Virus record (IMG/VR): IMGVR_UViG_3300028607_000629
Coordinates: 1 to 29,592 of that record
DNA length: 29,592 nucleotides
Reading direction: 5' to 3' (one strand)
Source: a virus
Lineage: Duplodnaviria > Caudoviricetes
Shown one piece after another: positions 3 to 19,784 of the stretch. Under the pieces are notes generated by a model that saw only the letters and a list, made by a program, of their open reading frames with translations, searched no databases and was not told where the DNA came from. Numbering within the stretch: position 1 is the first letter of the stretch; the number at the start of each line of letters is the position of its first letter. The position numbers and the translations under genes are program-made.

Positions 3-146
3 AAACACCCAATATTTGAATCATTCAAAGATGGAATGGCTAAGTTGAACGATATAGGAATACCTTGTTTCAAATATATAGTTAGTGCAAAATCAGATTC
101 AGAAATGGTATATAGAGGCGTGGCAACAATGATAGAGGACTATTAG
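3..146 (+). CDS. 3' end of a gene truncated by the window edge; putative small Ras/Arf/Rab-like GTPase
   Basis: Open frame KHPIFESFKDGMAKLNDIGIPCFKYIVSAKSDSEMVYRGVATMIEDY* ends at TAG 144-146. A beta-strand + SAK + final helix resembles the G5 motif and alpha5 of small GTPases. G1-G4 lie outside the window. Confidence 0.5.
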   Translation, partial: KHPIFESFKDGMAKLNDIGIPCFKYIVSAKSDSEMVYRGVATMIEDY

Positions 147-821
147 ATGAGTATGCAATATTCGCCTCCCTCTTTAATTGGTGCTACTACTAGCACAGCA
201 GCCAATCCATTTTTACCTCCAATTAAGTTTGCTCGCGCTGCTGGTGGAATAATGAATTATGATTATAAGAGCACCAAACCCAGGAAACAAATAAAGGAAT
301 TGATTAATATTCTTTGGCCAGAAAAGAAGTCATTCCTTAAGATGCCTTATGGATTCAAATTCAATACTAAAGATAGATGTGTAGTTTGTGGAACCCATAA
401 GATATGGGAAGCAAATGACCCAATGAGACCAACTATTCCTTTACACAAAGTTAGAAAGGGTTATCCAATGAGAGGGAATTATTGTGAGAAACACTCAGGT
501 TTACACCGACAATATGAAATGTTGGAGCAACACATGATAGCAGAAGAACACGGGTTAGAATTTAGAACATTCCTTCCTACACCCAGAATACCCAAATTAT
601 TACAATCAGCACCGCTAACTTCATTAAGGCAATCCGACATCGAAGCATTGAGTGAGGTGGGCTGGACAATTAGACCCCCAACAATGCAATCAGAAACATT
701 AGAAGATGAAATGTTTAGGTTAACTATTGAGAGTCAATCTATCAATAAAAGGGTTCTGAAACTAATTACAGATGGAGCAGAAATAATTCCACAAACAATA
801 GAAGAAAAAGAGGTAGAATAA
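147..821 (+). CDS. Hypothetical protein with putative C3H zinc-binding domain (224 aa)
   Basis: CVVC (378-389) ... YCEKH (480-494). ATG directly follows the upstream stop; helical, acidic C-terminus. Confidence 0.8.
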   Translation: MSMQYSPPSLIGATTSTAANPFLPPIKFARAAGGIMNYDYKSTKPRKQIKELINILWPEKKSFLKMPYGFKFNTKDRCVVCGTHKIWEANDPMRPTIPLHKVRKGYPMRGNYCEKHSGLHRQYEMLEQHMIAEEHGLEFRTFLPTPRIPKLLQSAPLTSLRQSDIEALSEVGWTIRPPTMQSETLEDEMFRLTIESQSINKRVLKLITDGAEIIPQTIEEKEVE

Positions 822-822
822 T

Positions 823-1524
823 ATGGCATGGAGAACAAGTAATAGTTCAATATCTAGTCAGATAACGACACAAGGACAAGCAGATTTTAAGGTGATGAAT
901 AATCTTCTAACTCTGCAAGAGAATCATGTGGAAGAGTTCTTTCAGTATCATGGAGAGCAATTCTTTGGTTCACTAGAAAAATTAATGGAAGATGTTATTG
1001 AAAGAGTAGTCAGCCAAATGTTGGTTAAATTGAAATTCGTATCTAATTCTAACGGAGAAATATCTGTGCATTCAGATGCTTTGAGAGAATACGAAAGCAT
1101 TACTGCTGAAAACATTACATTAGATATACAAATGCTTTTAGCATCGGCACTTAATACGGAAGTTATAATGCAAAGAAAGATGGCTAAACAACAATATTTA
1201 GAGGCTCAGGGGTTCACATCATCATCTATTCCTCAACAACAATCTATGCAACAACAATTTATGCCAAATCAACAAGGTATGAATCCTATGGATATTCAAG
1301 GGGGCAATCCAAGTGTCGCTGCTAACAATATGATGATGCAACAACAACAAGCATTTAACAATCAAAGCGGATACCCTGTTCCACCGGCAGGAACAGATAC
1401 AATGGGGAATCCTTATTGGGTTGACCCTATGACGGGACAAGCAACATATACCCCACCAACTAGCGGATTGGGTCTAGGTAACGCCATTAGTAAAGGATTG
1501 GCCTGGGCTTCTTGGTTAGCATGA
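823..1524 (+). CDS. Hypothetical protein: helical N-terminus, Gln/Met/Asn-rich linker, WW-like motif, amphipathic C-terminal helix (233 aa)
   Basis: RBS GAGGT at ~810. Low-complexity QQQSMQQQFMPNQQGMNPM stretch, then GNPYWVDPMTGQATYTPP, ending GLGLGNAISKGLAWASWLA. Confidence 0.8.
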   Translation: MAWRTSNSSISSQITTQGQADFKVMNNLLTLQENHVEEFFQYHGEQFFGSLEKLMEDVIERVVSQMLVKLKFVSNSNGEISVHSDALREYESITAENITLDIQMLLASALNTEVIMQRKMAKQQYLEAQGFTSSSIPQQQSMQQQFMPNQQGMNPMDIQGGNPSVAANNMMMQQQQAFNNQSGYPVPPAGTDTMGNPYWVDPMTGQATYTPPTSGLGLGNAISKGLAWASWLA

Positions 1525-1534
1525 GTGGAGTAAT

Positions 1535-3433
1535 ATGGACATTAAAATACCCAAGTCCTTTACGGTTAAAAGCCGCCCCTATACTATAGGGGAGTCCGAC
1601 TTGGAATTGAATGATGAAGACCTAGTGGGACCACCATCTAAACACCCATTATTTGTCTATATGCTCAAATATCTAATGGCCCCAATGGATGAGGGGTTAT
1701 CAGACATATCAAGGAGCATGAAGATTTTACTTCAACCTAAAGTATTGGATAAAGTTGCAAAGTATACACATGATATGGAAGTGGATGAAGAGGAATACAT
1801 TAGACATATTGAGTTTGCCTGGAAGGAAATACATGAGGCAATTATGTATTCAAAGTCTGAAACAAAAGATTCTCAGGGAAAATCATTAGACCCCCAACAA
1901 TTTGTTGAGGAAGGACTATTACATGTTTTAGAGAAACAAAACTGGATTCCTAAACAAGATAAAGAAGTAATAATTAATATTAGAAGAAATATGCCGGAAA
2001 GGGGTAGAGCATCTCAATTCAATGATATATTAGATACTGTGGATGCTACTACTGGAAGGCCAAGTATAGGTAGAATTGGACAGCAAAAAATTATGGGATA
2101 TAGACAGGGTGAACGGTCAGCAAAGTTGTATAATGCAGCATTAAGTAAAAGCCCATTTAAACCTGTTCTTGAAATATTGAAAAGAGTTGAAGAGCATCCT
2201 GGCGGAAAAGACACCACATTAGGAAAGATAAAGAATACAGTAATAATTGAATATATTCATCATGCTAAAACTAGAAGAATGGAAGGCAGAGATATATTAG
2301 ATATGAGACAAATAACTATTCATTTTGATGAAGCATTTGAAATTCTTCGTAAAGAATATGGAATGAATATGAAAGCATCAATACAAGATAAATCCGAAGA
2401 AGATGAAACAATTGAAAATAGTGATGTATTGGAAAAATGGGAGGCATTGATTGACCAAGATTCAGAAGGATTACCCACCCGACAGTTTCCAATAGGAGAC
2501 ATAACTCCAGATGCAAGGTATATTAGTTGGAAAAGGAAAAATTGGGATGTAGATGTATCTGCTATTCAGGATTTAACAGATAAAGAGAAATATTATCTGA
2601 GAAGAATTAATATTAAACTAGAGTGGGAAAAGCAGTTAGATAGTGAATCTGTCGATGAAGAATTAATTATCTATCTATATCTTTATAGAGTTATAGATAA
2701 AGACAAAATGAAGAGTTATCTACTACAAAATAGTAAAGGGAATTTCCTAGAGAAATATGGAGAGAGTCATTTTGATTATACTAATGAAGAGTTTGAGTTA
2801 ATTGGCAAATTATTAGATGGTAAAGAAAATAAGGACGCTCTTGAAACTAAATTGATACAAGAATATAAAATACAAGGAATGTCTAAAATAGCAGAGAAAG
2901 AGGCCAAAAGACTTAGACAAGAAAGTAGACCTCTTATTCAGGGATTTCCAGGTGGACAGTTTGCGGAACATAAATTATTTGATGATATAGATAAACCTGA
3001 CCTTAGCAAAATAGACTTAGCAAATGTGCGTTCAAGTGAATTTAGAGAAGAATTAAATAAAGCAATTACTCCTGGTATTGCACATGGAGGGGAAGGAAAA
3101 CTAACATTTACTATGGGAGCCCCTAAAGGAAAGGATTCTGGAGGGCATCTTTTATTGGCGGTTAAATTCACAGCACATAATCCACTAAAATATTCTGATT
3201 ATTATGCTAAAACAGGTTCAGTATATGGTAAATGGACACCAGGAGAAAGCGAAAGAGGAAAGTTTATTCCTTCGGGTTATGATGAACCACGCAAAAGGAG
3301 GCCCAAGCCTGATAGAGCACCAGAAGGAGGACAAACATTGTGGATTGATAGCATACCAAATGCTACCATGTTCTTATTTTATCTAAAAAAGCAACTTATG
3401 AGATTACAGAAAATGGTGAAAAATTATGTCTAA
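1535..3433 (+). CDS. Large charged hypothetical protein (632 aa), function not recognised
   Basis: Long ORF with GGAG RBS at 1527-1530; K/E/D-rich; overlaps the next gene by 8 nt. Confidence 0.8.
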   Translation: MDIKIPKSFTVKSRPYTIGESDLELNDEDLVGPPSKHPLFVYMLKYLMAPMDEGLSDISRSMKILLQPKVLDKVAKYTHDMEVDEEEYIRHIEFAWKEIHEAIMYSKSETKDSQGKSLDPQQFVEEGLLHVLEKQNWIPKQDKEVIINIRRNMPERGRASQFNDILDTVDATTGRPSIGRIGQQKIMGYRQGERSAKLYNAALSKSPFKPVLEILKRVEEHPGGKDTTLGKIKNTVIIEYIHHAKTRRMEGRDILDMRQITIHFDEAFEILRKEYGMNMKASIQDKSEEDETIENSDVLEKWEALIDQDSEGLPTRQFPIGDITPDARYISWKRKNWDVDVSAIQDLTDKEKYYLRRINIKLEWEKQLDSESVDEELIIYLYLYRVIDKDKMKSYLLQNSKGNFLEKYGESHFDYTNEEFELIGKLLDGKENKDALETKLIQEYKIQGMSKIAEKEAKRLRQESRPLIQGFPGGQFAEHKLFDDIDKPDLSKIDLANVRSSEFREELNKAITPGIAHGGEGKLTFTMGAPKGKDSGGHLLLAVKFTAHNPLKYSDYYAKTGSVYGKWTPGESERGKFIPSGYDEPRKRRPKPDRAPEGGQTLWIDSIPNATMFLFYLKKQLMRLQKMVKNYV

Positions 3434-4550
3434 ACTAAAGTCTGAAAGTGATTTTACTGGCATTAACCCAGATTATATAAAAGGAAGGGGTTACTATACA
3501 AACCATGTTGATGTGTCTGATTTACTTCAAATCAGTCCATTTACAGATGCAGATGGAGATGGTGATATTTCATATTTCACTGAAACATCTACACCATCAA
3601 AAGAGATGGTAGGAAAAATAATAAAGACTGTAGAGGGAAAAATAGATGGATGGATTAAATATACATTTAGACCTGAAATAGTGGAGAAAGAAATACATGA
3701 TTTTGAATCAGGTAGATTAGTTATTTATCCTGCTACTCATTGGAAAGATTATATTGGATTCATACAATGTGATACTAGAAAGATTAGGAAGATGATAAGA
3801 TTAGAAGTGTATCAAGGTGATGATTGGACAGACCTTGCTTCGGCTAGTGTTAGTTATTCACCTCCAGATTCGGCCATATCGGAAACTTATACACTAAAAC
3901 TTCTGGTTGCAGGATATACCTTTACCCTAACTAAAGGAACCTCTAATGGTTTTTATGATGTTTTCGGTAGAAAAACAACAGTATCACAAATCAGTGATGC
4001 AATAAATGAAGTATTTCCACACGACACCGCACAGTTTACAGGGGAAACAACGCCTAAAAATACAACAGAAGATGGCGGCATTACTAAGAATATCTCCGAT
4101 TTCTTTTATGCTACCCCATCGGAGAATGATAATTCAGTTGATATTTCTTCCCTGCTACCTTCAGATGCAGGGACAATATGTTCTCTTATTGAAACAATTG
4201 ATGGAACTGCGGTAACTTCTTCCTTTGCAGACAATGAAGATTCTGGAAGAAATGCAGATTGGTGGATGCTTGGAAATCATGGGAAAATATTCTTCAAAAA
4301 GAATTGGCCATTCTTGAAGAATAACTCTATCAGGGTAACTTATCTTTCAGGAGCATCTAGAGTTCCAGCCGAAATACATGAAGCAGCAACTAAATTGGTA
4401 GCGGCAGAGATATTAGTCCATGACGATAACAGCATTATTATTGCTGAAACAGGAGCAAATATTGATTTGAAAACAAAGCATGAGATTCTAACAGAAGAAG
4501 CAAAGCAACTGATTGAAGGTAAAAAGGAACTATTACATCTTATTGATTAG
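3426..4550 (+). CDS. Head-tail adaptor/connector (SPP1 gp15 / HK97 gp6-like) with inserted domain
   Basis: N-terminal helices (VSDLLQI...IIKTVEGKIDGWIKYTFRP) and C-terminal IRVTYLSGASRVPAEIHEAATKLVAAEIL match the adaptor signature VxVTYxxG..VP.dI..A..L. Located before the terminator and tube genes. Confidence 0.75.
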   Translation: MSKLKSESDFTGINPDYIKGRGYYTNHVDVSDLLQISPFTDADGDGDISYFTETSTPSKEMVGKIIKTVEGKIDGWIKYTFRPEIVEKEIHDFESGRLVIYPATHWKDYIGFIQCDTRKIRKMIRLEVYQGDDWTDLASASVSYSPPDSAISETYTLKLLVAGYTFTLTKGTSNGFYDVFGRKTTVSQISDAINEVFPHDTAQFTGETTPKNTTEDGGITKNISDFFYATPSENDNSVDISSLLPSDAGTICSLIETIDGTAVTSSFADNEDSGRNADWWMLGNHGKIFFKKNWPFLKNNSIRVTYLSGASRVPAEIHEAATKLVAAEILVHDDNSIIIAETGANIDLKTKHEILTEEAKQLIEGKKELLHLID

Positions 4551-4562
4551 GTGATATTATGG
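4549..4562 (+). promoter_or_regulatory. Shine-Dalgarno/start region AGGTGATATTATGG (identical copy at 7462-7475)
   Basis: GGTGA core overlaps the upstream stop codon and precedes ATG 4559; the same 14-mer precedes the TMP start at 7472. Confidence 0.7.
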
Positions 4563-4765
4563 TTGAGAAACTTAGAACATTCAAGGAATTTCTCAATAAA
4601 GAGATAGAATTGAATCGTATTCTCAAGGATGCTGGTCTTGGTAATATAGCAATGGAAAGCAGGGAAGCACTTCATGATTCGGCTATGAATAATTATATAA
4701 AATCTACAGAGGAATATGTCTTAAAAATAGCAAAAGATGGAATAGAAGGTTTTCTAAATGGATGA
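4559..4765 (+). CDS. Small hypothetical protein (68 aa), neck region
   Basis: Strong RBS, helical sequence, 8-nt overlap with the next gene. Confidence 0.7.
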   Translation: MVEKLRTFKEFLNKEIELNRILKDAGLGNIAMESREALHDSAMNNYIKSTEEYVLKIAKDGIEGFLNG

Positions 4766-5294
4766 GGTTGAATTTCTAATAAAGTTACTTACTGTTCATT
4801 GGTCAGATGCCAGCACAGTAGCGGCTGGTAAAAAGAATGTTAAACAAGCAAACGGGGGTGCTTGGACATATCAACCTACACCTATATTCATAGACATTCG
4901 TTCATTACAACCAGGAAAAGGTAAAAGAGTAGATTTGGATGACAAGCCAGTAATTATTGTATATGAGGATAGTGCAAGTCTTTCCCATCCAACAATTGAT
5001 AGAGCAGTTAGAAATGAAGAATATAGTTTTACCCTTCATTTGAGAGTATTGCACCGTAGAGACTACACTGAACTAACTTATTCCCGCAGACTACTGCAAG
5101 TTTTATACCAAATGGCGAGGCACATCTTAGAGAAGAACGGGCTTAGGCCAAAGGTTTATGACGATAACAACGATTTAGAAGCCAGCGCGGAATTAATTGA
5201 GATTACAGGCAGAAGTGAGGCTAACGATAGAGGTAAGAAACTATTAGGCTATAAGATGACTGTATCCATGAAACGGTTTGGGAGAACCATATAA
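4758..5294 (+). CDS. Putative tail terminator / tail completion protein
   Basis: 178 aa, directly upstream of the tail tube. Alpha/beta pattern (PVIIVYED...YSFTLHLRV...helix...GYKMTVSMKRF) is typical of gpU/gp17-like proteins. Mostly a positional inference. Confidence 0.6.
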   Translation: MDEVEFLIKLLTVHWSDASTVAAGKKNVKQANGGAWTYQPTPIFIDIRSLQPGKGKRVDLDDKPVIIVYEDSASLSHPTIDRAVRNEEYSFTLHLRVLHRRDYTELTYSRRLLQVLYQMARHILEKNGLRPKVYDDNNDLEASAELIEITGRSEANDRGKKLLGYKMTVSMKRFGRTI

Positions 5295-5310
5295 GTAAGT
5301 AGGTAAGAAC

Positions 5311-6822
5311 ATGGTATTAAACGAAGTATATACAGGAGCAGGGTTATCGGCAACGATGATTCCAGAGACAGAAATAGCCATACATCAAGCGCATCTGATG
5401 GGAACAGTAGAAAATGGCAATAATTTACTAGAAACAACAGATAGCGAGAAAAGTTTGACTTGGGATTTAACAACTGAACCAGCAGCAAATAGATTGGTTG
5501 AAGATATTTACAAGGGTTGCATGGCTAAATTAGATAGGTTTGATTCTTCTGGTGTAGACCAAACTTCATCTCAAACATTGTTAATTATTGGTAATGAAGA
5601 GAATAAACTAGAGTTTGGGCAGGCTTTATCTGGAACTCCTGGTGATTTATACCAATGCACTATTCTAGCATATGGAGCGCCTTTATATGCACCAACTGTA
5701 ACAAACGGGTCAGCCAATCTTTTGGCTGATAATTGGTTGGGACTAGTGAATACCATTTCTCCGCCGACAGTAGAAGCAGAGCCAAAACAACTTAACTTAG
5801 CATTGGGTGGAACAAGAAATTTTGGCTTCCAATTCAAGGGAGCAGAAACTCTTGGAGAAGCATCTATTGATATTTCTTTGAATCATGGTGCTTGGCTTTA
5901 CTATGCACTAGGTAAAATGACCTTTAGTGCAGAACAAGATGGAAGTTTAAATTTAACAAGTAGTGGTAAATTACCTGGATACACTTATTTCCATGCTGCA
6001 AATAACACTTTTCATAGATATGAAGGAGATGCTTGTTTACCCCCACATACTGATACTACTGCTACTAATTATAAGAAGTGGGATGGAAATAAAATAGTCT
6101 ATACAATTACAGAAGCGAATAGTGGAGATTTGCCTTCATTTGCATTGGAAATAACTAATGAAAAAGGAAATACTACCTATGCAAATGATACTGAATTTGA
6201 TGACCATTTCACTAGAATATACACAGGTTGTCAAGTTAATACTTTGACTCTGAATTTTGAGGAAGGACAGGATGTTAAGGCTACAGTTGGAGCAGTTTCT
6301 AGAAAGGCACATGATGCTTCTTCTGCTTATACCCCAAAGAGAAATGTAACTAGTCCTAGTAACTTGTTCAATTATGGAGACGATAATGCTAATAATCCGT
6401 ATATGTTTTCGGATGGAACCATTAAGATATTTGGACAGACAATGGCTAGAATTAAGAGTGGAAGTATAACCATTACAAACAATCTAACGCCTCAGCGTTT
6501 CATAGGTAACTATGATAGAAAAATTACTTCTGCTCATATTGCTGGACAGAGAATGTATGAATTAACTCTAAATCTATTGATTACAGATAGGACTATATGG
6601 GATGAACTTAGGAAACAAAATGAAACCACTGATAGCACAATTGAGATTGAGTTTGCTAAGTCAGATAACGATAAGATAAATCTTAAGTTTGATAACTACC
6701 TAACTACATCTGTTGACATACCATTCCCAGATGATAAGGGGCCACTTGAAGTAAGCATGATTGTTCAACCGAGAACATTAAATGCATGCACATATACAGG
6801 GAAGTGGGTAATACAAGGGTAA
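5311..6822 (+). CDS. Major tail tube protein (503 aa, with insertions)
   Basis: Motifs LPSFALE...RIYTGCQVNTLTLNFEEG, ARIKSGSITITNNLTPQRFIG and GQRMYELTLNL are typical of phage tail tube proteins; followed by chaperone and TMP genes. Confidence 0.8.
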   Translation: MVLNEVYTGAGLSATMIPETEIAIHQAHLMGTVENGNNLLETTDSEKSLTWDLTTEPAANRLVEDIYKGCMAKLDRFDSSGVDQTSSQTLLIIGNEENKLEFGQALSGTPGDLYQCTILAYGAPLYAPTVTNGSANLLADNWLGLVNTISPPTVEAEPKQLNLALGGTRNFGFQFKGAETLGEASIDISLNHGAWLYYALGKMTFSAEQDGSLNLTSSGKLPGYTYFHAANNTFHRYEGDACLPPHTDTTATNYKKWDGNKIVYTITEANSGDLPSFALEITNEKGNTTYANDTEFDDHFTRIYTGCQVNTLTLNFEEGQDVKATVGAVSRKAHDASSAYTPKRNVTSPSNLFNYGDDNANNPYMFSDGTIKIFGQTMARIKSGSITITNNLTPQRFIGNYDRKITSAHIAGQRMYELTLNLLITDRTIWDELRKQNETTDSTIEIEFAKSDNDKINLKFDNYLTTSVDIPFPDDKGPLEVSMIVQPRTLNACTYTGKWVIQG

Positions 6823-6837
6823 GACACACTTTCAATC

Positions 6838-6900
6838 ATTCCACTAACAATCGTTTGTTTGTTAGTAAGGCCCATGTAGGGCCAAAGATGTAGGTGGAAT
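6838..6900 (+). promoter_or_regulatory. Structured intergenic RNA element (three stems) covering the chaperone RBS
   Basis: ACTAACAA 6843-6850 pairs with TTGTTAGT 6859-6866; GGCCC 6869-6873 with GGGCC 6879-6883; ATTCC(AC) 6838-6844 with (GT)GGAAT 6894-6900, overlapping the AGGTGG RBS. Confidence 0.6.
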
Positions 6901-6901
6901 A

Positions 6902-7264
6902 ATGGAAAGACCGTTAGTAAATGATAAGAATGCGCTATTCGCGCGAACAGAAACAGAATGTCATCACTTGAGGGTAAGCCCTGATAGTGATGAATATATG
7001 AAAGTGTGGATTAAAGAACCCACATGGCTCCAAGTGGAGCAGGCACTATCTAGTGTGATGAAACTAGATGCAAAGACGCAAAGCCTTGACTTAGACATGA
7101 ATGAAATGTATAAATTCATGGTCGAGAACTTTGTGGAAAAGACAGAACCCCAACTGTCGGGGTTAGAACTGTTAAGGTTGTCGCCATATGTCGGCGCACA
7201 ACTAAAGGAAGTTCTGCCTAATCCGTTTACGGATTTAATGGGGGCTGACCAGGGAAACGAGTAA
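6902..7264 (+). CDS. Tail assembly chaperone (lambda gpG analogue)
   Basis: 120-aa ORF between tube and TMP, ending ...QGNE* over a slippery heptamer. Confidence 0.8.
   Translation: MERPLVNDKNALFARTETECHHLRVSPDSDEYMKVWIKEPTWLQVEQALSSVMKLDAKTQSLDLDMNEMYKFMVENFVEKTEPQLSGLELLRLSPYVGAQLKEVLPNPFTDLMGADQGNE
7252..7258 (+). promoter_or_regulatory. Programmed -1 ribosomal frameshift site G GGA AAC
   Basis: Canonical X XXY YYZ heptamer in the chaperone frame. The -1 frame is open (RVNYRRALKGTEVKPD...) through the stop at 7465-7467. Confidence 0.85.
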
Positions 7265-7467
7265 ATTACCGTAGGGCTTTGAAAGGAACTGAGGTAAAAC
7301 CGGATATAGCAATGGATGTATTATTATATTCTTATTGCAGTATTTTTCACATAAACCCTTTGGAAGCAAAGCAAACTCCTGTTAGTATTATTCAAAAAAT
7401 GATGCTAATTCATGGAGAAGTTAAGAGAATAGAAACTGAGGAAATACAAAAAACACTTAAGAGGTGA
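7258..7467 (+). CDS. -1 frame extension of the chaperone (gpGT analogue, fusion ~188 aa)
   Basis: Track ORF 7279-7467 starts at TTG without a clear RBS and is in the -1 frame entered at the slippery site. Confidence 0.8.
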   Translation, partial: RVNYRRALKGTEVKPDIAMDVLLYSYCSIFHINPLEAKQTPVSIIQKMMLIHGEVKRIETEEIQKTLKR

Positions 7468-7471
7468 TATT

Positions 7472-8956
7472 ATGGGAGATGTGGAAACCCGAATTTATAG
7501 TATTGTTAGTGCTCAAGATGCATTAAATGAATCTACTGGCAAATTAATGGATTCAATGCTATACCTCAATAATTCTAGAATATGGACTACAATGAGCAGA
7601 ATAGTGTCGGGTATCCTTCCTGGCTTTTGGTCAGTTCAAAATAAATTCAGAGCAATAACTGATGTGTTTAGAGGATACAATGATTACTCTGTTGAAAGTA
7701 ATAAAGCGGTATTGAAACAAATGAAGTCATTTGCTAAATTAAGTAATCAATTAAAGGTTATTCCAGATGATTTTTATAAAATGGGTCAGGCAGTAACTGA
7801 TGCTATGAATGAAGAAGATTGGGTAGCATTTGATTTAATGGGAGAAGCAATGTGGGCAGATATGGATAAATTTATGAAGATGGCCAAAGAGCATGTCTCT
7901 GAATTTGACACAATTAAAGAAATGGTTGAAGGTGCAGGTTTTGGTGATATTCAATTAAGAAAAGAAATATTGGGAGCAATTGAGCCACAAAGGGAAGACG
8001 CCGAAGCAAAGAAGAAGAAAATGTCTGATGAATATAAGAAAAAGGTACAGAGAGAGGAAAAAATGGCATCAATTCTAGAAGGCTTAGACCCCTCAAAGGA
8101 TGGAGTGAAAATATGGTTCCTAAGACAGAGAATGAAAATAGGACTATTGTTAGTAGGGGCGGGTGCATTCTTCAAGGGTGCTATGATGTGGTTTGCAGGA
8201 ATAGCAATTGTCCTAGCACTCATTATTGGGTGGTTCAAAAAGTCGGCACCGATGCTAAAAGGAGCATGGGAATTCATAAAGGCTTCATTAACATTAGTAG
8301 TAGAAGGAGTAATTCAGATAGTAAAAGGATTTATTTGGATGATTCAGGGAGCATTGACAGGAGACATAGAATTAGTATTAAAGGGGCTCTTTGAGGGAAT
8401 CCTGCTGGGAGCATTTAAGATTCTTATAGGTTTAGTTGGAACATTAATTGGAGTAGCAGGAGCCATAGTTATAGGACTCTTAGGACCAATAATGGAAAAA
8501 CTAGGACTTATTGAAAATTCTGTTACGGACATAAAAAGTTGGTTTGGCGTTTTAGGAAGTATATTAATTGTCTTGGGGGCAATAGTTGCAATACTTGGAG
8601 CCCCTGCTTTTATAGGAACATTCCTTTACTCTGCTGCATTTACTATTGGGCGGGCTATTGCTCTGTTAATAGTGGGTGCATTTTTAAAGTTAATTGGAAG
8701 CGCCCATACAGGAGGAATGAGAAGTGGATTGACTCTTGTAGGAGAAAAGGGGCCAGAATTAGTCACATTACCAAAGGGTTCAAGAGTTCATTCTAATGCA
8801 GAAAGTAGAAGGATGGCTGGAGGAAATACTATCCATGTTCACATTAATGGAAGACTTGGTGCTTCTGATATAGAAATAAGAGACATAGCAGATAAGGTTG
8901 GAAGAGAAATTAATCTCAGAATGAATAGAACATCCAATACACAAATGAGGTTCTAA
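7472..8956 (+). CDS. Tape measure protein (short, 494 aa)
   Basis: Follows the frameshifted chaperone; helical with long Gly/Ile/Leu hydrophobic segments. C-terminal AHTGG...LVGEKGPELVTLPKGSRVHSN is a typical TMP motif. Confidence 0.85.
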   Translation: MGDVETRIYSIVSAQDALNESTGKLMDSMLYLNNSRIWTTMSRIVSGILPGFWSVQNKFRAITDVFRGYNDYSVESNKAVLKQMKSFAKLSNQLKVIPDDFYKMGQAVTDAMNEEDWVAFDLMGEAMWADMDKFMKMAKEHVSEFDTIKEMVEGAGFGDIQLRKEILGAIEPQREDAEAKKKKMSDEYKKKVQREEKMASILEGLDPSKDGVKIWFLRQRMKIGLLLVGAGAFFKGAMMWFAGIAIVLALIIGWFKKSAPMLKGAWEFIKASLTLVVEGVIQIVKGFIWMIQGALTGDIELVLKGLFEGILLGAFKILIGLVGTLIGVAGAIVIGLLGPIMEKLGLIENSVTDIKSWFGVLGSILIVLGAIVAILGAPAFIGTFLYSAAFTIGRAIALLIVGAFLKLIGSAHTGGMRSGLTLVGEKGPELVTLPKGSRVHSNAESRRMAGGNTIHVHINGRLGASDIEIRDIADKVGREINLRMNRTSNTQMRF

Positions 8957-10553: not shown

Positions 10554-12983
10554 ATGGAACGATATGTCTATGTATTGAATAATGGTAAATATAGTAATGA
10601 GGATATAGACTTATCTTTTGCTAGCAAACATACTGCATTTCCGAATACAGCCTTTTCAGATACATCTGTGAATCCTGTGATTAAATCAACTAACATAAAT
10701 GCAGAATATGATGGGGTTTCTGCTAACTTCTTTGAGATTAGAAACGGTCCTTATGATGGAACTATTTCATCTGACGATTCAAGTCAAATAGTAAATAGAA
10801 TATATCCATCTGCCTATGCAACTGATATTACTCAATATGCTAAAAATAGACAACAAACCCGTTCTTACAAATTAAGGACATATTCTTCTAAGAGTAGTGA
10901 AATACATAATCAAAGGGTAATTGGAAGTGGTAGTATAGAAATGGATTTAAACCTGTATGATTATTTTGTATTAATTAATCCTGAGATATATCATCCTAGT
11001 AATGACAAATACCCAACTATAAGACCACACTTTGCCAAAATAACTCAAATAGTCTACTATGATGAGTATGGAGATGGATTTGAATTTGAGCCTAGATATG
11101 TTGGGCCTATCCCCAAAGACACTAACTTTGAAATATTCCAGGGACCAGAGGTAGGAAACACAGATATTGTCGCAGTTAGTTATGGCCTTCGTGGAGATGG
11201 TAATGAAATCAATCCAAATCATACAAACTATGATTTTATAACAGATAAATATGACGCGTCAAGTGTAGTTTCAAGACCAACATGGTATTTCTATAAAGAT
11301 AAATTAACCAATGCAAATCAGTTGAATTATGATACCAAATACAATCTAACTACTTGTAGATGGTGGGCTGATTGGACAGATGTAGGAGATTATGCAAATC
11401 TTTCTGCCGATACTCAATTTACTTTTGATGCACTTTTGACTACTCCTTCTAATCAGCCTTCATTAATCATAGGACAAAGTGTATATTACAAAGATAATTC
11501 TAATAATTACATATATATGGGAAATGTTTCAACAGATACATCAAGTAATTTTAGAGTGGATTATGCAAGAAATGCGTTACCTTTAACAACATCTCAAACA
11601 GACCTATCAGTATATGTTGGTAGAACAGTTCATCAATCAATATTTAGAACTGAAAGAGAGTTTGGAAACGAAATACAAGATTTGGGACCATTAAATCAAT
11701 CTGCAACTTTTGTGGATAGAATATATGATAAGGATACTATACATAAAGATTATGAAACAGATGGAACATATACTTTTAATCCCACTATTTGGAAAGATGC
11801 ATTTAGAAACTATAAAAGAACTACAGGAGACCTAAAATCTACAGCCTCTGGATATACTACAGCAGGAGTAATATCAACTATTACGGCCAATTTAACTGGA
11901 CCTAAGAGGTACATGTATTATAAATCTTCTCATCTTAAAAATAATGCGGTTAATCCTGTAACTGAATTGAGGGTAAATAATCCAAAGGAGAAGATTAGTC
12001 AAATTGCCAGAATTAAAACATTAGATGGTTCAGGCATACAGTTTTTGAAGTTAAAAGAAGATGCATCTTTAGTAGTGAAAAATTCGTTACATACCAATAC
12101 TCTTAAGCAATTCAAGTTACCATATAGTGCCGATAGTAACTATGAAAGTATTGGACCAATATTCTCAATAGTATTGAAGCAATTACCAGATAAAGAAGTG
12201 GACTATGGAGTATCAACCTCACTAGGAAATAAAGATATAGTTAGAGTAAATAATACCTATTACAGAGTAACAACAGTAAGTGTTGCGACAAATAATAAAC
12301 AATATATTAATGTCACTCACAAAAAATTGGCTAGTGATACTACTTGGACTCAAATGACTACATCATCACATTTAGAATCCTTTACTGGTGCAGATGTATA
12401 TGTAATGGCTTGGAATGGAGGACTCAATAGTAATTGTCCAATAGATACAGAAGTAATTTATGATTCTAATGTATTACAACGATTAACTATGCATGGTAAT
12501 ACCATTAATATAAAAGATAACAGTTTATATAATAGAAAGTTAGTTCTATTGAATATAGAGTTTTATGGTCATGACATTGATATAAACTATGGCGATTCAT
12601 CACATAATCACATTAAATTAAAAACAAGTAAAAAATTCTATCAGCCTAATCCTATTGACTTTATGTATTATTACAATGGTAACTATTGCATTGAGGATGA
12701 AGCATTTAATGGAACAATAGAAGATATAGAATCCAGTAGCACAGAAGGGATATTAACCTATACTATAACCGGAAGGGATAAAACTTCAATATTACTTAGT
12801 AATATAACTAGTAATAATTTGAACAAAACTGATGATATAGTTCTATCTTCATTGGCTCCTGTATTTGATCTTCTAATTCTACAAATCCTATTACCTTTAC
12901 TTCTGGAACAGATAATAATACTGCTGAAATGGCAGGTATGGCGAAATATGATTTACTGTTTAATGATGATGGAGTATTTCTAG
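10554..12983 (+). CDS. Baseplate hub/Tal-like giant protein, part 1 (genuine frame ends ~12869)
   Basis: FNGTIEDIES...YTITGRDKTSILL is a hub-domain-like motif. Residues after ~12870 (LLILQILLPLLL) look like out-of-frame translation. Confidence 0.7.
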   Translation: MERYVYVLNNGKYSNEDIDLSFASKHTAFPNTAFSDTSVNPVIKSTNINAEYDGVSANFFEIRNGPYDGTISSDDSSQIVNRIYPSAYATDITQYAKNRQQTRSYKLRTYSSKSSEIHNQRVIGSGSIEMDLNLYDYFVLINPEIYHPSNDKYPTIRPHFAKITQIVYYDEYGDGFEFEPRYVGPIPKDTNFEIFQGPEVGNTDIVAVSYGLRGDGNEINPNHTNYDFITDKYDASSVVSRPTWYFYKDKLTNANQLNYDTKYNLTTCRWWADWTDVGDYANLSADTQFTFDALLTTPSNQPSLIIGQSVYYKDNSNNYIYMGNVSTDTSSNFRVDYARNALPLTTSQTDLSVYVGRTVHQSIFRTEREFGNEIQDLGPLNQSATFVDRIYDKDTIHKDYETDGTYTFNPTIWKDAFRNYKRTTGDLKSTASGYTTAGVISTITANLTGPKRYMYYKSSHLKNNAVNPVTELRVNNPKEKISQIARIKTLDGSGIQFLKLKEDASLVVKNSLHTNTLKQFKLPYSADSNYESIGPIFSIVLKQLPDKEVDYGVSTSLGNKDIVRVNNTYYRVTTVSVATNNKQYINVTHKKLASDTTWTQMTTSSHLESFTGADVYVMAWNGGLNSNCPIDTEVIYDSNVLQRLTMHGNTINIKDNSLYNRKLVLLNIEFYGHDIDINYGDSSHNHIKLKTSKKFYQPNPIDFMYYYNGNYCIEDEAFNGTIEDIESSSTEGILTYTITGRDKTSILLSNITSNNLNKTDDIVLSSLAPVFDLLILQILLPLLLEQIIILLKWQVWRNMIYCLMMMEYF

Positions 12984-15900
12984 GAGAGGTAGATACTGTT
13001 ACAGGAACATCTAATGTTACTGTTACATTAAAAGGATATACTGGAGATTTCCCAGTAAAGATTACAGCGCATGATGCTAATTCTATTATGCTAGTTAAAT
13101 TAGGAGATGCCAATTATTTAACGGGAATGAAAGCAATGGCTGCAAATCTTGATGCTACAAAATATCCAACTGACTATTCCTCTATTGGAGAAAAGGGAGT
13201 AGTTTTCCATGATGGAGAAAAGATAACTTATTCTGGAGCATTTGCATATAGTGATTTATTGAACACTTCTTCTATCAGTTCATTCTCTAAAGATAGAACT
13301 ATAGGATATGATATTACTGATGTAAAAGGAATAGAGGAATCATATGATTCTAATTTTGCATTCAAACTATCTAATGAAAAATCAGCAAGTATAGATTATA
13401 AACCAACCCAAACAGTAGCCATGAGTCATTATCACATTGTGGATGTTAATGCCCAAACTGATGGCACCACATTCATAATAGCACCTATCTTCCCTATAGT
13501 TCTAGGAAGCATAGATACTAACAGACAAGTATTTGATTTGCCTGGACAATCAATAGATGGAGAGGTATACGGCGAATCTGCTACATGGGGAGATGATATG
13601 AGATATTTATACATGGTCAATTCTAATATTCTAAATGGTGGATTCATACATACACTACAAGACACTCATTCAGATTATTATACACCAAATAAAACATTCA
13701 GATATTGGGGAATACAAAGGTTCAAGGAAGGGAGTATTGCTGAAACTCATGACAGCATTTACAATGATAACAATAAAACTCAGAGAATTACTGCTGCCAT
13801 GCCTATGTATAAAATAAATGGATTAGGGACTAAATTAACTCCTACTGATAGCGGGCTTGACGCTGACTTAACTCCAACATTAAAACCTTTGAGAGAATCA
13901 AATCTATGGACCGCAACAGGAGTAGGATTAACAGGAGATAGGGTTCCTCCTATAGAATCTTATGAAGAGAACTCTCAACCCGAGAGCGTAAATTGGAACC
14001 AACTAGAAAATATAGATTATCGTGCAAAGAATTATGAACTCTTAGCAATTGGAGATATTTATCCTGATTCTAAATTAAGATGGAATAATATACAAGCACA
14101 AACAAAAGACTTTTCTACCTATGGAATGGTGATTGAATCAGAAGGCTCAAAAGGAAAGTCTATATCCCATCAAAACTTCACAGGCACAACTAATAATACT
14201 AATACTTCTGATTCAAACTATGAGAGAATAGAAATATCTAGTTCCCCTACAAAGACAAATGAAGTAAAAAGGTTTGGAATAATGAGATTAGTTGAGGCCA
14301 CTTTTGATTGGCACTTGAATCCTATTGATTATGAAAGTGTTGCTAGAAATGATGCCTATGATAAAATTACTAACTTCAACTATCCTAGAATGAAGATAGT
14401 AGATGGAACAAATAGTGTTGAAGATTATAATGGAACTATACATGCTAATCTAGAAAATTCGGTTACATTTGTTGAGGGCGATATTGCATATCAAAAGGAT
14501 GGCACAGTATATGCATATATTGAAACACTTATTGGTTCACAAAATAAAATTTCATATGCAGATATAGTTACTGGTTCCCATACCTATACAGGAGAAATAT
14601 ACATAATACGACAAAAGATGTTTCCACTACTTGCTGATGATAATGGGGTAGGATTAAATGGAATGGGAGCAAATGACTTTAAAATGCTAGAGGTATATTT
14701 GGCATTACCTGAAATAAACAGAGACTATTTTAACTTCACACTCTTAATACACAGTAATAACAAATTTGATGCACAGAATATTTTTGCCCCTGTAATTTCA
14801 GGAGTGTTAGGTTCTGGGTATTATAATGAGGAATATTCTCTGTTCCATGAAGCCAAACAATGGGATTCTTCTACAAATAATCCTATTTGGTATCATCCAT
14901 CTAGAGTAATCAATGCATTAAGCCAACCAACCTTTACCCCTGTATGGAGTGGAAGTGCCTGGTCTTCAACTTGGGGAATAGATGATGGTATTCAATACGC
15001 AATAGGAACTAAATCTGATTTGTATGGAAAAAGTCATGCACTATTTAGAGAATTGAAAAAAGCCACAAAGCAAGATAGTGATAATAAGGCATTCAATAAA
15101 CCAACCAGCGCCATAATTTCTAGGGGAACTTATGGCACAAATACTCATTATGATGATTATAGTGGTAGTGCTGATAATGGTGCATCACAGGGACAGGTTG
15201 CGCCTAATATAACAATGACTGACACCAATGGAACAGAATTTGTAGTATGTGGAGCAAAAACTAAAAGACATATTTATGCTGCTCCTGATGGAACAGATAG
15301 GACATGGGCAGTTAGAGACGACTATCATCAAGATTCCGATTCTTCATCCCCAAGAGGAGATTTATTTCAAGCACAAATGTTTATTAAACCAAGATTTGTA
15401 TTAGGGGGTGATACAAATTATGGAACTACTTTCAATTTTACTATTAATGATACTACAAACCATAAGTGGTTAGACTTTATGCCTGATTTAACTGGCTATT
15501 ATTTGGTCTCAGAAAAATTAGACAATGGTAATCTTCCCAGCGAAACTTATGGTAGTCATAAAACAATGGGTTCTCCAAAGTATATTGGAAGAATAAAAGA
15601 CCACACAACTAATATGAATGGGGATTACATAAGGCACATTTTCACATTAGATAATGCTTTGAACACAGCAGCGGATGAAGCAGGAGTAAGTTTCAAATTA
15701 ATGAGAATTTCAGAAACTACCTTTGAAGATACTCCAGATTATTTTGAGGTAAATCAAATGTTTGATACAGGATTAAAATATGATGGGTTAACTCAAAATT
15801 ACATTACTGGAATAGAACAAGAAAGCGGAGCAGATGTAACAGAAACAGAATATCTTGCTTATCAAGAAGGGCTATATTCAATGTATTTATTACTAGATGT

Positions 15901-16330
15901 TGATTATGGAAGTGATGCTAATACTCATATAGAACGAAGAACCATAGCCGATGCTGATGATTTATTTAGTAATGGTGATTCATTGAACTGCTGGATTACA
16001 GATGGAATAAATTCAATAGAGAAAAATATACTAGTTACTAAGGTGACGGGTTCTAAGTTAAGGTTTTCATATGAGGGAACATTAAAAGGATATGGTGTGG
16101 TATCCTTTGGAGAAACTATTACAATAGAAAGCCCATCTTCAATAAGCATTAGGTCACCCAAGATAGCATATATTGGAACTACATTTTCAATAGGAACAGA
16201 TGTTGAAAAGGCAATAGAAGAGATGCTGGAAGAAAATAATATTGAGATAGATACTTCTGAGAGAAATCTAATTTATACAGGTAATATAGTTGATAGTCTT
16301 ACTACTTCAACAAGCATTTCATTAGAATAA
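12869..16330 (+). CDS. Baseplate hub-like giant protein, part 2 (large beta-rich insertion)
   Basis: Frame open from 12869 (SSNSTNPITFTSGTDNNTAEMAG...); track ORF 12929-16330; ends with IGTDVEKAIEEMLEENNIE, a hub-like helix. Confidence 0.7.
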   Translation, partial: SSNSTNPITFTSGTDNNTAEMAGMAKYDLLFNDDGVFLGEVDTVTGTSNVTVTLKGYTGDFPVKITAHDANSIMLVKLGDANYLTGMKAMAANLDATKYPTDYSSIGEKGVVFHDGEKITYSGAFAYSDLLNTSSISSFSKDRTIGYDITDVKGIEESYDSNFAFKLSNEKSASIDYKPTQTVAMSHYHIVDVNAQTDGTTFIIAPIFPIVLGSIDTNRQVFDLPGQSIDGEVYGESATWGDDMRYLYMVNSNILNGGFIHTLQDTHSDYYTPNKTFRYWGIQRFKEGSIAETHDSIYNDNNKTQRITAAMPMYKINGLGTKLTPTDSGLDADLTPTLKPLRESNLWTATGVGLTGDRVPPIESYEENSQPESVNWNQLENIDYRAKNYELLAIGDIYPDSKLRWNNIQAQTKDFSTYGMVIESEGSKGKSISHQNFTGTTNNTNTSDSNYERIEISSSPTKTNEVKRFGIMRLVEATFDWHLNPIDYESVARNDAYDKITNFNYPRMKIVDGTNSVEDYNGTIHANLENSVTFVEGDIAYQKDGTVYAYIETLIGSQNKISYADIVTGSHTYTGEIYIIRQKMFPLLADDNGVGLNGMGANDFKMLEVYLALPEINRDYFNFTLLIHSNNKFDAQNIFAPVISGVLGSGYYNEEYSLFHEAKQWDSSTNNPIWYHPSRVINALSQPTFTPVWSGSAWSSTWGIDDGIQYAIGTKSDLYGKSHALFRELKKATKQDSDNKAFNKPTSAIISRGTYGTNTHYDDYSGSADNGASQGQVAPNITMTDTNGTEFVVCGAKTKRHIYAAPDGTDRTWAVRDDYHQDSDSSSPRGDLFQAQMFIKPRFVLGGDTNYGTTFNFTINDTTNHKWLDFMPDLTGYYLVSEKLDNGNLPSETYGSHKTMGSPKYIGRIKDHTTNMNGDYIRHIFTLDNALNTAADEAGVSFKLMRISETTFEDTPDYFEVNQMFDTGLKYDGLTQNYITGIEQESGADVTETEYLAYQEGLYSMYLLLDVDYGSDANTHIERRTIADADDLFSNGDSLNCWITDGINSIEKNILVTKVTGSKLRFSYEGTLKGYGVVSFGETITIESPSSISIRSPKIAYIGTTFSIGTDVEKAIEEMLEENNIEIDTSERNLIYTGNIVDSLTTSTSISLE

Positions 16331-17224
16331 TAGGCAAGGTCACTTCTGACCCAACAGGGAACTCAGCGTTGGTGGTATTAAACATCTTCTATAAACCAAA
16401 GAAGAATGATGAAATCACCAAATATGATAGAAGACCACATATCCTCAACACTAATTTCACAGACCAAGACATATTCTCCGCTATCAATTTTTTGGCAGCA
16501 AAAAAATCTTTAGACTACAACTTTGATGGTAATAAAATAAAGATTAGAGATTTGAGGAATTACAATACTTTTAGAAAGTTTGCATTAAAATATAGAGACG
16601 GTACGAATTTAATATCAGTGGACAGCAATACTAGTCTATTTGACAAGGGAAATAAGATTATAGTTATAGGGGACAATGTAAAAGCCACAGTAGAAATACC
16701 CTCAAAGAAACCTAGAACCATAAAGCATATAGATTCTAATATAAAGAATTCTCAGGAAGCAAAAATTAAGGCATTTGATTTGTTAGAATTACACAATAAA
16801 CCATCAAGAAAAATAACATTGACTCTAGAAAAAACTGGCTTTGAATTAATGCGAGCAGGCGATTTAATATCATTAAACTTTCCCAATCATAACATTCCTC
16901 CTGATGATTACATAGTATTTGAAATTGAAAATGTAATGTCTAGTGTGGCAAAGATAACAGTTGGAACATTCAATAAGGGTATTGCAGAAAGACTTTCAGA
17001 AATATCCTTAAGTCAATCTATTGGATTTACAAATTTATTCACAAAGAATACTAGTAAGACATTAACAGGTAAGGCAGTATTAGACCAATTCATGCCAATA
17101 GAAAGGTCATTAAACTATGAATTGAAATCAACATCAGGAGGTAGCATATTTGGCTTTGTTTAGTTTTACTACCTATTTTGCTTTTCCATCGGAAACAAAG
17201 GTTGTTACGGAGATTAAACTATGA
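16294..17224 (+). CDS. Baseplate hub-like giant protein, part 3 (C-terminal hub domains)
   Basis: Frame open from 16294; the track start is a TTG at 16369. Hub-like motifs DIFSAINFLA, NKIIVIGD, IDSNIKNSQEAKIKAFDLL, MRAGDLISLNFP. Stop at 17163, or at 17224 if one extra T is removed. Confidence 0.7.
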
Positions 17225-17586
17225 TTGTTGATGCAGGTAGAAAACAGATTGCCAAGTTAATAACCGGCATTCAATTAAATAATGGAGGAATTGCATTTAA
17301 GTATGTTAGAGTGGGAGATGGAGGAGATAGCACTTCAATGTCTCAAACTACACTAGATAGTCAAGTTAGTGATACTAAAACTGTAGCCCCAATATTGGTG
17401 GGAAATACCTTAGTGTATGAAATAGAATTTTTAGGGAGCGATTTAACTTCCAATGTTATTTCAGAGTTAGGTATCTTTGATGCAGCATCTGGAGGTAATA
17501 TGTTATGCAGAGTAAATTTCAATCCAATAGGGCCGCTATCAGCAAGTGAAACATTGACCTTCAATTTTAGAGTGGAGATAGAGTAA
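17221..17586 (+). CDS. Tail-collar / fibre-attachment domain protein (DUF3751-like)
   Basis: DAGRKQIAKLITG...YVRVGDGG...QTTLDSQV...ISELGIFDAASGGNMLCR resembles the N-terminal domain of P2 gpH-type fibres; GGAG RBS at 17209-17212. Confidence 0.7.
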   Translation: MIVDAGRKQIAKLITGIQLNNGGIAFKYVRVGDGGDSTSMSQTTLDSQVSDTKTVAPILVGNTLVYEIEFLGSDLTSNVISELGIFDAASGGNMLCRVNFNPIGPLSASETLTFNFRVEIE

Positions 17587-19784
17587 TGGCGTATCAAACT
17601 AATACTGGCTTTATAAGTGATTTAGTCACTACTACTCATGGTCACCTACAAGATGGTGCTAACCATGTTATACATACAGGTATAATAAAGGCATTGAATG
17701 TTGCTAATGCAGGTTCATTCATAGCACATGGTATGAATATAGATTCGTTATCAACTGGTAAATTCAATATTAGTGCTGGTGGCTTCTTTAGGAATGGAGA
17801 ATATATTGAATTTAGTGAAGCAACTAATGCTACTCCCCCTTCTAGTGGTGCTACTGATTGGGAAGGAGATTCTGGTTATGATTGGTATGGTTTAATTTGT
17901 ATAGATACAAGTAATAATGTTGTATTTAGAAAGCCTTCTGGAACTCTTGGTGCAATAAAAGTAGCAGACCCTACATCGGGAGATATACCATTAGCCGTTG
18001 TTCAAGTATTAAAGGATAGTGATTATGCTGTAACAAGAAAATTCCAATTCTTAGGAATTAAAAAGACAAGTGCTGCTTTAGTTGCTGGAGATGAGAATAG
18101 TGGTTCATTCAGAAAAAGGTTTGAAGTAGAAACTGGCGGTGCAATCAAAACATATAATACGACAAATGCCTATTGGACTAAACTGGGCTTTGTTGTTCCC
18201 ACAGCAAATAGAACAATTAATTTCCCAAATATATCTGGAACGGTTATTACACATAACGATACAGGAACTGTTACATCAACAATGACAAATAATACTATTC
18301 AAAACGCATTAACATTTGGAATAGGAAATCAAAATGCTGTTCTTGTAGATGATGCTGATGCCGCAAATAATGACTATGCTAAGTTTACTGCTAGTGGATT
18401 AGAAGGAAGAAGTTATGCCGAAGTTAAATCAGATTTAGGTTTAACTGATTTTGATAATGATGATGGTGGCTTAGTTCCTAGCCCTGCTAGTTCAGGAACA
18501 ACAGTTAAATTCCTAAGAGAAGACGCCACTTGGGTTATTCCGACAGATACAGTTTATACTCATCCATCAGGTGATGGAAATCTTCATGTTATAGCAACAA
18601 GCACAAGTAATAATGGTAAAGTTCTAACAGCAGGTTCAACTGCTGGAAGTTTATCATGGACTGATAAAACAGTAGATACAAATACTGAATATTCAATAGG
18701 AGATGGCGGGTTAACTCAGAAGAACTTCACGACCACACTAAAGAATAAGTTGGATGGTATTACTGCTGGTGCAGGTGTTCCAAGAACAGACTCAGAAATC
18801 AATACTCTAGCACAGGCTAAAGTAGATGCTTTAATTGATGGTGCGCCCGGAGCATTAAATACATTGAATGAGATTGCTGCTGCATTCAATGATGATGCGG
18901 CATTCAATACAACCATAACAAACGCAATAGCATTAAAAGCACCATTAGCCTCTCCTACCTTTACAGGAACCGTAGTTGGTATTTCAAAGGCTATGGTAGG
19001 GTTAACAGATGTAGATGACTTAAGTGCCGCAGACATTAGAGCAGGCACAACTGCGGCTAATGTTGGATTAGGTGATGTTTCAAACATAACAACTGCGGCT
19101 ATGAGAGCAGGAGTTACTGCGGCCAATGTCGGGTTAGAGAATGTTACCAATGAATCAAAGGCAACAATGTTTGCTAATCCTACATTTACAGGAGAAATAG
19201 GGATAGGCGATGTTAATGTAAGTGAAACAGAACTTGGTCTTCTTGAAGGAGCAACATCATTAGGGGCAGGTTCTTTAGCATCATTGGGTATTACTGCTAC
19301 TGCGGCGGAGATAAACATATTAGATGGTGTTGCATCTGGTCTTACTGCGGCTGAGATAAGCATACTAGATGGTGGTTTGGCCGCAGGTGATATACCAACA
19401 TTAGCCAAGTCGAAAATTTCAACAACAGGAACATGGGTTACGGCAGATATACCTAATCTTGCGACTAGTAAGATAACAAGTGGAACATTTGCTGATGCAA
19501 GAATAGCAACGGCGGCCACATGGAATGCTAAACAAGATGCTCTCACTTTCGCAACAGGTTTAGCCGATTCAAGTAATACCATTTCTTTAGATTTCAATTC
19601 CTTAACTGATTTAGGAACAGGGACAGTAATCGATAATGATTACATTCCTGTATATTCTGCTTCAGGAACAGCATATAAACAGCAGAAGATTTCATGGGTA
19701 AAATCACTTCGGCTCAAGTTACTGGTTCTGGTAAGATTTGGGCTACTTTGCCTGCTAGTGCCGCTACTGTTGGAGGAAGATTAG
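17586..19784 (+). CDS. Giant tail fibre/adhesin, N-terminal part (genuine frame ends ~19680-19695)
   Basis: T/A/G/S-rich, with the classic fibre motif [22 protein letters not shown]...[11 protein letters not shown]. The last ~30 aa look out of frame. Confidence 0.8.
18993..19190 (+). repeat. 3 x 66-nt (22-aa) tandem repeat 'NVGL..V...T.A.MRAG.TAA'; related copy at ~20125-20270
   Basis: Units start at 18993, 19059 and 19125; both clusters end in SKATMFA(N/S)PTFTG. Confidence 0.8.

Follow-up and report, generated by a model that had tools for sequence, protein, structure and literature searches.

A conserved five-gene block with a predicted small GTPase in magroviruses and related elements

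Introduction

A small GTPase encoded with membrane partners is unexpected in a tailed virus of prokaryotes, and the locus described here raises the question of what such a gene set does for the virus that carries it. The locus opens a 29.6-kb piece of tailed-virus DNA (the window, meaning the whole stretch analysed), in which the module genes are followed by tail genes, including tail fibres, on the same plus strand. A preliminary description had proposed that the first three genes encode a eukaryote-like, GTP-switched and membrane-associated complex expressed with the late genes. Comparison with relatives indicates that these genes belong to a five-gene module that is real, conserved and apparently new to the literature. 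In the accessible portions of the literature, we found no paper joining magroviruses with a GTPase and no description of the block. The term "GTP" is absent from the main text of three magrovirus papers, including PMC11706807, and "GTPase" is absent from PMC8651126, although supplementary gene tables may label the GTPase.

The window and its virus type

The three coupled genes of the preliminary description are confirmed as plus-strand ORFs at positions 3–146, 147–821 and 823–1524, with gaps of 0 and 1 nt. The first, open at the window start, encodes the C-terminal 47 of 222 residues of a GTPase (gene 3 of the module). The second encodes an orphan Cys/His protein of 224 aa (gene 4) with a CxxC...YCxxH pattern and a predicted single metal site. 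The third encodes an orphan Gln/Met-rich protein of 233 aa (gene 5), comprising a conserved N-terminal domain, a variable Gln/Met/Pro-rich linker and a Trp-rich hydrophobic end. An orphan of 632 aa at 1535–3433 on the plus strand lies outside the module, and both the length and the family of the gene at that position vary among relatives. The head-tail adaptor-like gene, tail tube, two tail assembly chaperones and tape measure gene that follow at 3426–8956, also on the plus strand, place the module in the virion arm. The trio thus lies among the late genes, ahead of the adaptor and tail genes, as had been supposed, and the reported lack of a holin or endolysin also stands, with no such family matched among the 18 window proteins scanned.

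The virus type was assigned through relatives of the window. The group-B set comprises the best 80 of 132 IMG/VR loci related to gene 5, plus one (81 loci). The capsid protein of these relatives matches that of the haloviruses HCTV-1/HVTV-1 at 24%, and a DNA ligase gene lies inside their structural block, while the complete relative G005 carries a split PolB, ribonucleotide reductase and a chaperonin. In the available text of PMC5434244, magrovirus group B is marked by a halovirus-like capsid protein, a ligase inside the structural block and a GroEL-type chaperonin; further marks are ribonucleotide reductase and, in B1, a split PolB (PMC5434244, Philosof 2017). The window is of the magrovirus group B/B1 type, all marks being found in its relatives rather than in its own genome, and the "GroEL-type" call resting on a weaker Cpn60 score, not a tree. 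The link of magroviruses to Marine Group II (MGII) archaea as hosts is taken from the same source (PMC5434244, accessible part). Magroviruses are abundant in the surface ocean, and the exit of tailed archaeal viruses is described as uncharacterised in the sections of PMC10791045 available to us.

A small GTPase of its own family

The GTPase fragment in the window, which comprises a helix, the last strand, the G5 motif SAK and the final helix, ends in IVSAKSDSEMVYRGVATMIEDY. The initial reading of this SAK end as that of a small GTPase is borne out by complete relatives, in which the G1, G3 and G4 motifs were sought and are present throughout. The fragment is identical at 43 of 47 positions to the C-terminus of P0124, a full 222-aa relative carrying GxxxxGKT, a conserved Thr, DIGGE and NKFD. 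All four motifs, G1, G3, G4 and G5, occur in 75/75 complete group-B copies (among 81 loci) as GxxxxGKT, D[IV]GG[EQ] (Glu in 61, Gln in 14), NK[FY]D and SAK. The Glu that most group-B copies carry after the G3 glycines, a position normally held by Gln, suggests that hydrolysis may depend on a partner. In a second set (group A, see below), G1, G3 and G4 are present in 81/81 copies and G5 reads MAT or SAT; the SAK letters are specific to the clade of the window.

The AlphaFold2 model consists of an N-terminal helix (residues 2–22) and a G domain, with pLDDT 63 and pTM 0.63, and both switch regions have pLDDT below 50. Among 48,161 solved chains, the best fold matches are G-alpha, Rag (Asgard), Arf1, SRbeta, Arf6, Arl and Sar1, and Asgard ArfR and MglA are also among the top rows. 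These rows (Z 8.5–10.3) are tied within about one Z unit, with rmsd values mostly of 3.3–4.3 and some of 6.6–8.6. By the modelled fold, the GTPase leans towards the Arf/Sar/SRbeta side rather than Ras/Rab. Its best PDB sequence-profile matches are H-Ras, K-Ras and Rab33B (H-Ras E 4.7e-5), not Arf, and a single-sequence PDB search returned nothing under E 0.4. Pfam matches are all sub-threshold: the Arf family is matched by 4/29 group-B copies at E ≤ 0.1, and the best score of the module GTPases, 21.9, does not reach the Arf cut-off of 22.3. The protein forms its own family of small GTPases and is not a Pfam-level Arf; its motifs and G-domain fold make it Ras-superfamily-type (TRAFAC), predicted to bind and hydrolyse GTP. 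The label "eukaryote-like" fits the GTPase fold alone, as the four partners match no known family.

The N-terminal segment is hydrophobic in 77 copies (median Kyte-Doolittle 1.2), and the hydrophobic moment of the helix has a median of 0.18, reaching 0.39 in windows of P0124. In conservation the GTPase equals the major capsid protein, with median identities over 18 loci of 0.64 and 0.63, respectively. An exhaustive profile search yielded 151 GTPase representatives at E ≤ 0.001, and two database entries are auto-named "GTPase SAR1 family protein". Among distant full-length relatives, 19 of the 31 scanned pass the Pfam Arf cut-off; P0291, P0329, P0337, P0356 and P0383, small GTPases from metagenomes that pass it, have long N-termini that are in many cases hydrophobic. 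An identity as DO-GTPase2 was dropped, its sole match having E 0.022 over 14 residues.

Four partner proteins

The trio is not a unit by itself but the downstream part of a five-gene block (six genes in group A), which begins, outside the window on its upstream side, with two small genes predicted to encode membrane proteins. As judged from relatives, gene 1 encodes about 134 aa, with hydrophobic segments followed by a polar helical tail, and gene 2 about 73 aa, with a conserved AY-x-x-x-RAHSAD motif followed by a hydrophobic segment. Hydropathy prediction, the sole basis of these counts, assigns one or two membrane segments to gene 1 in 30/30 copies and at least one to gene 2 in 24/30. Neither gene matches a holin or endolysin family. 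A membrane-associated complex, as first proposed, would have its predicted membrane-spanning parts in these two upstream genes and not in the Gln-rich protein.

In gene 4, the CxxC...CxxH pattern noted at the outset proved invariant, with C78, C81, C113 and H116 kept in 39/39 aligned group-B relatives; elsewhere among the clades, both the first and the later Cys persist and the second ligand varies. The pattern may represent a zinc finger. The protein has no Pfam family and, in a profile search, no PDB sequence match under E 0.4. An Atlas search gave only leads under 0.9, the structural model is of low confidence (pTM 0.30), and most copies are without a predicted membrane segment. The gene 4 product is a candidate regulator or effector of the GTPase.

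The N-terminal domain of gene 5 is conserved in all clades. The WW-like motif of the protein, G-x-D-xx-G-x-x-YW-x-D, is found in 37/37 group-B sequences and is matched in group B only. The signature of a WW domain is a pair of Trp residues. The first Trp is present in 0/37 group-B sequences and no Pfam match was obtained, so the WW-like motif suggested earlier is not a WW domain. The Gln/Met-rich linker is evident in the window sequence, and such low-complexity linkers occur in both genes 4 and 5. The terminal helix is hydrophobic (mean 0.70), and the amphipathic character first ascribed to it is weak, with a low hydrophobic moment (0.18–0.23). A PDB profile search gave 0 matches at E ≤ 10, an Atlas search gave no usable match, and most copies have no predicted membrane segment. 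The gene 5 product is a candidate scaffold or coat.

Order and spread of the block

The group-B order is capsid gene, three small genes, genes 1 and 2, GTPase, Cys/His protein, Gln-rich protein, a variable gene and the adaptor. All five module genes occur in this order in 71/81 loci, and the other ten meet a contig end inside the block. The gap of 0 nt between the GTPase and gene 4 is not conserved, the commonest values being 64, 5, 9, 26 and −4 nt, and the largest 223 nt, whereas that between genes 4 and 5 is conserved at −8 to +2 nt in 76/81 loci. The synteny of the trio in relatives is upheld, with the partners flanking the GTPase across deep clades. In a broad set of 82 loci, the four partners lie within 3 kb of the GTPase in all 61 loci with enough flank, a count that is partly circular since the profiles were built with 30 of those loci. 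When group-B profiles were compared with those of the rest, the partners paired with their positional counterparts (E 5.7e-4, 2.7e-4, 1.7e-14 and 3.4e-6), and one off-diagonal pair appeared (E 1.2e-3 over 12 columns). For genes 1 and 2, the comparison between the two main clades only is not significant (E 0.28 and 0.26) and becomes significant with more clades. All loci were found through module genes, so that these counts describe linkage, not prevalence among magroviruses.

A scan of genome collections added four loci in two MAGs with the same layout, two of them merely 31–32% identical. Three (L082–L084) are magrovirus-type contigs in a bacterial MAG named Maricaulis sp. IN14, likely contamination; L085 is a module-carrying magrovirus-type contig binned inside a MAG. 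A second large clade was reached from one MAG locus, and 80 of its 187 loci were kept. Its complete member G007 carries a thermosome-type chaperonin and an SNF2 helicase, which identify the clade as group A. All five genes are in order in 77/80 of these loci, and the remaining three comprise two ORF-filter artefacts and one truncation. Group A adds a sixth small hydrophobic gene, and its block stands immediately ahead of the small terminase. Additional deep clades carrying the block emerged from broader scans. The block relocates whole, being found after the capsid gene in G005 and before the small terminase in G006, G007 and G411.

These positions bear on whether the module proteins might be packaged in the virion as a conduit for DNA entry or ejection in the membrane of the next host. 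Phage ejection proteins have membrane segments together with coiled-coil-like and Gln-rich stretches. The membrane segments and the coiled-coil-like and Gln-rich stretches of the module recall them, and the group-B block lies between the capsid and head-tail adaptor genes. In group A, however, the block is away from the head genes, it is present where no capsid gene was found, and its genes are without the N-terminal motif common to many other group-A ORFs, whose packaging role is a guess. We regard this conduit as very improbable.

An AbrB/MazE-like gene lies inside the block, after the GTPase, in 64 loci of the group-A set, which together with the ranking of G-alpha and Rag alongside Arf in the fold search would accord with a membrane-linked signalling switch (in host energy sensing or counter-defence) that alters gene expression and does no mechanical membrane work. 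The AbrB-like gene is, however, absent from the other clades, and scans of the four partners gave no DNA-binding or enzyme domain, leaving such a switch quite improbable.

Several other features of group A were observed. Many unrelated ORFs (L162–L241; for example, L206:252–674 and L200:1041–1511) start with M..F(D/N)xAWxLLK and fall in a 379-member cluster from 81 loci; our guess is that the motif is a capsid-packaging or protease signal. An HMGL-like enzyme gene lies upstream of the module at L177:5024–5875 and L344:10947–11792. The 108-kb genome G411 (L449–L454; CheckV 100% complete) is group-A-like and carries the module and replication genes, with no match to the G007 PolB.

The block away from capsid genes

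Three loci form a separate branch outside the virion arm. In L357/L359, the block has an acidic gene inserted between gene 2 and the GTPase; this gene, with (EP)n repeats, lies at L357:3571–4449 and L359:5564–5854. The 50-kb record of this type carries TFIIB-like, methylase, glycosyltransferase and resolvase genes, with no capsid match. A thermosome gene adjoins the block in L085 and L397. The 105-kb record of L397 (G410) matches the RNA polymerase large subunit and PolB, the former in a 1615-aa frame at about 63.5–64.2 kb that is apparently unsplit. Among the matches listed for G410, which is 76% complete, there is none to a magrovirus capsid protein, large terminase or portal, while the controls G005 and G411 matched all three in the same comparison. 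The capsid-less reading concerns one record at 76% completeness and one 50-kb fragment, in which a divergent capsid could be missed.

According to the accessible text of PMC5434244, magrovirus "group D" has PolB, thermosome, RNA polymerase and resolvase and has no structural or morphogenetic block; it is enriched in the cellular fraction and is possibly plasmid-like (PMC5434244, PMC10160649, available parts). G410 may belong to this group, which its PolB, RNA polymerase and thermosome matches would fit, the resolvase mark being seen only in G408. Scans with the L085 GTPase and thermosome gave no further group-D-like viral contigs. The presence of the block in an element without a capsid match bears on the nature and spread of "group D" elements. 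That MGII viruses and their capsid-less relatives share an Arf-like budding machine, serving virus exit in the former and export of "group D" DNA in vesicles in the latter, is an unlikely but attractive extension.

The block of G410, carried without a capsid, terminase or portal match, points to a role at the host membrane rather than as a virion part. The occurrence of the block in an element where PolB and RNA polymerase were matched and a capsid was not would also suit a module that builds or anchors an intracellular membrane-associated site of replication or assembly, a virus factory with a Gln-rich scaffold, instead of serving exit. The near-complete replisome and own chaperonin of these viruses (PMC5434244, accessible text) and the Gln/Met-rich, low-complexity linkers of both gene 4 and gene 5 are consistent with a factory. 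Against it, the tailed members keep the block in the virion arm, outside the replication block, and we consider a factory rather unlikely.

Comparison with known systems

Arf proteins have a Trp before the G3 Asp. The module GTPase resembles the Arf family in its N-terminal helix before the G domain and in DxGG[QE] at G3, but is without this Trp and has insertions after G3 and G4. It shares the G-domain fold of the Arf family and Asgard ArfR (PDB 8OUL, 8OUN), with Z 8.6–9.7 to Arf1, Arf6, Arl, Sar1 and HodArfR1. In the Arf family, a nucleotide-dependent interswitch shift frees the helix (bioRxiv 10.1101/2024.02.28.582541, available text). The module helix is hydrophobic more than amphipathic, and the GTPase is encoded with four orphan partners.

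Another parallel is the vesiculation operon ArvA-ArvB-ArvC (OapABC) of Haloferax volcanii, in which an archaeal small GTPase, here too bearing an N-terminal helix, is followed by a Cys-containing partner. In the accessible text of PMC10927574, ArvA drives vesicle formation and a Zn-ribbon partner is proposed as its GAP; a membrane role is known for ArvABC and predicted for the module. No module partner has a DUF2073 (ArvB) or DUF2072 (ArvC) Pfam match, and, unlike ArvABC as described in that text, the module is virus-borne and includes a Gln-rich protein along with two proteins predicted to lie in the membrane.

The same source reports, in the portion available, that ArvA loss also alters cell shape in Haloferax (PMC10927574). 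This effect, the shared membrane anatomy, the presence of the block in a record without a capsid match and the lack of a GTPase profile match in the lytic relative HCTV-1 would agree with a module that remodels the host surface or blocks division or vesicle traffic, with lysis left to other genes. Such control might take the form of superinfection exclusion, receptor shedding or cell enlargement. The late-arm position fits exclusion poorly, and of 401 genomes in the class to which the L085 MAG belongs, one had the GTPase, namely the MAG whose contig L085 began the search; the 400 others had no match, so that no host switch to mimic was found. We judge surface or division control distinctly unlikely.

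Virus-encoded GTPases are also known from the Nucleocytoviricota, whose Ras/Rab/Ran-like proteins are the best BFVD matches of the module GTPase (E from 1.5e-5). These viruses have eukaryotic hosts, and the module protein is only 8–19% identical to their GTPases, with a TM-score of about 0.2–0.45. Among the 50 BFVD matches listed for the GTPase, none is named as a tailed virus, and a tblastn search with the GTPase and the Cys/His protein against 50,697 phage records gave no match. Small proteins that are predicted to lie in the membrane and are encoded in a late operon also feature in holin-endolysin cassettes, among them the putative holins of the Adrikavirales viruses of Poseidoniales (PMC11706807). 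The module differs from them in adding a GTPase and two soluble partners and in having no holin or endolysin family match for genes 1 and 2 or the window proteins.

A possible role in virus exit

We tentatively favour, at somewhat less than even odds, a reading in which the virus encodes a GTP-switched machine that works on the host membrane and would likely deform or breach it for the exit of progeny. Action at the host membrane is favoured by the late-arm position of the block combined with its independence from capsid genes. The predicted anatomy of the block, with membrane anchors, a helix-bearing switch, a metal-site partner and a low-complexity scaffold, resembles Arf/Sar1 and ArvABC by analogy. 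The products of genes 1 and 2 would insert in the host membrane and mark a site, at which the GTPase, in the manner of Arf/Sar1, would dock by means of the hydrophobic helix at its N-terminus. The Cys/His protein may regulate the GTP switch, and the Gln-rich protein, whose gene is tightly coupled to gene 4, may scaffold or coat the site. The GTP cycle would then set the moment at which this membrane, which is not enclosed by a murein wall, buds or ruptures.

Several observations weigh against exit. In phages, small membrane proteins alone accomplish lysis, and a GTPase machine of five genes is an expensive way to achieve simple lysis. Confidence in the GTPase model is modest, and the best sequence matches are H-Ras, K-Ras and Rab33B, not Arf. 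Genes 4 and 5 are mostly without a predicted membrane segment, and the absence of a GTPase match in HCTV-1 indicates that tailed archaeal viruses can exit without the module. If true, the budding-machine reading would give tailed viruses an exit mechanism of a new kind and prokaryotes a GTPase-adaptor-coat system whose parts are unrelated to the eukaryotic ones. Whatever its role, the five-gene block is on a par with the capsid protein in conservation and offers a concrete gene set to express and assay.

Tail genes of the window

Downstream of the module, the ORFs of the two tail assembly chaperones, 120 and 62 aa long, adjoin at 6902–7467, before the tape measure gene, in the two-gene arrangement usual for programmed frameshifting. 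Long tail ORFs overlap in different frames, 10554–12983 with 12929–16330 and 17586–19784 with 19694 to the end of the window. The overlaps at 12929–12983 and 19694–19784 are possibly frameshifts or assembly errors, and a similar gap lies at 16330–16369.
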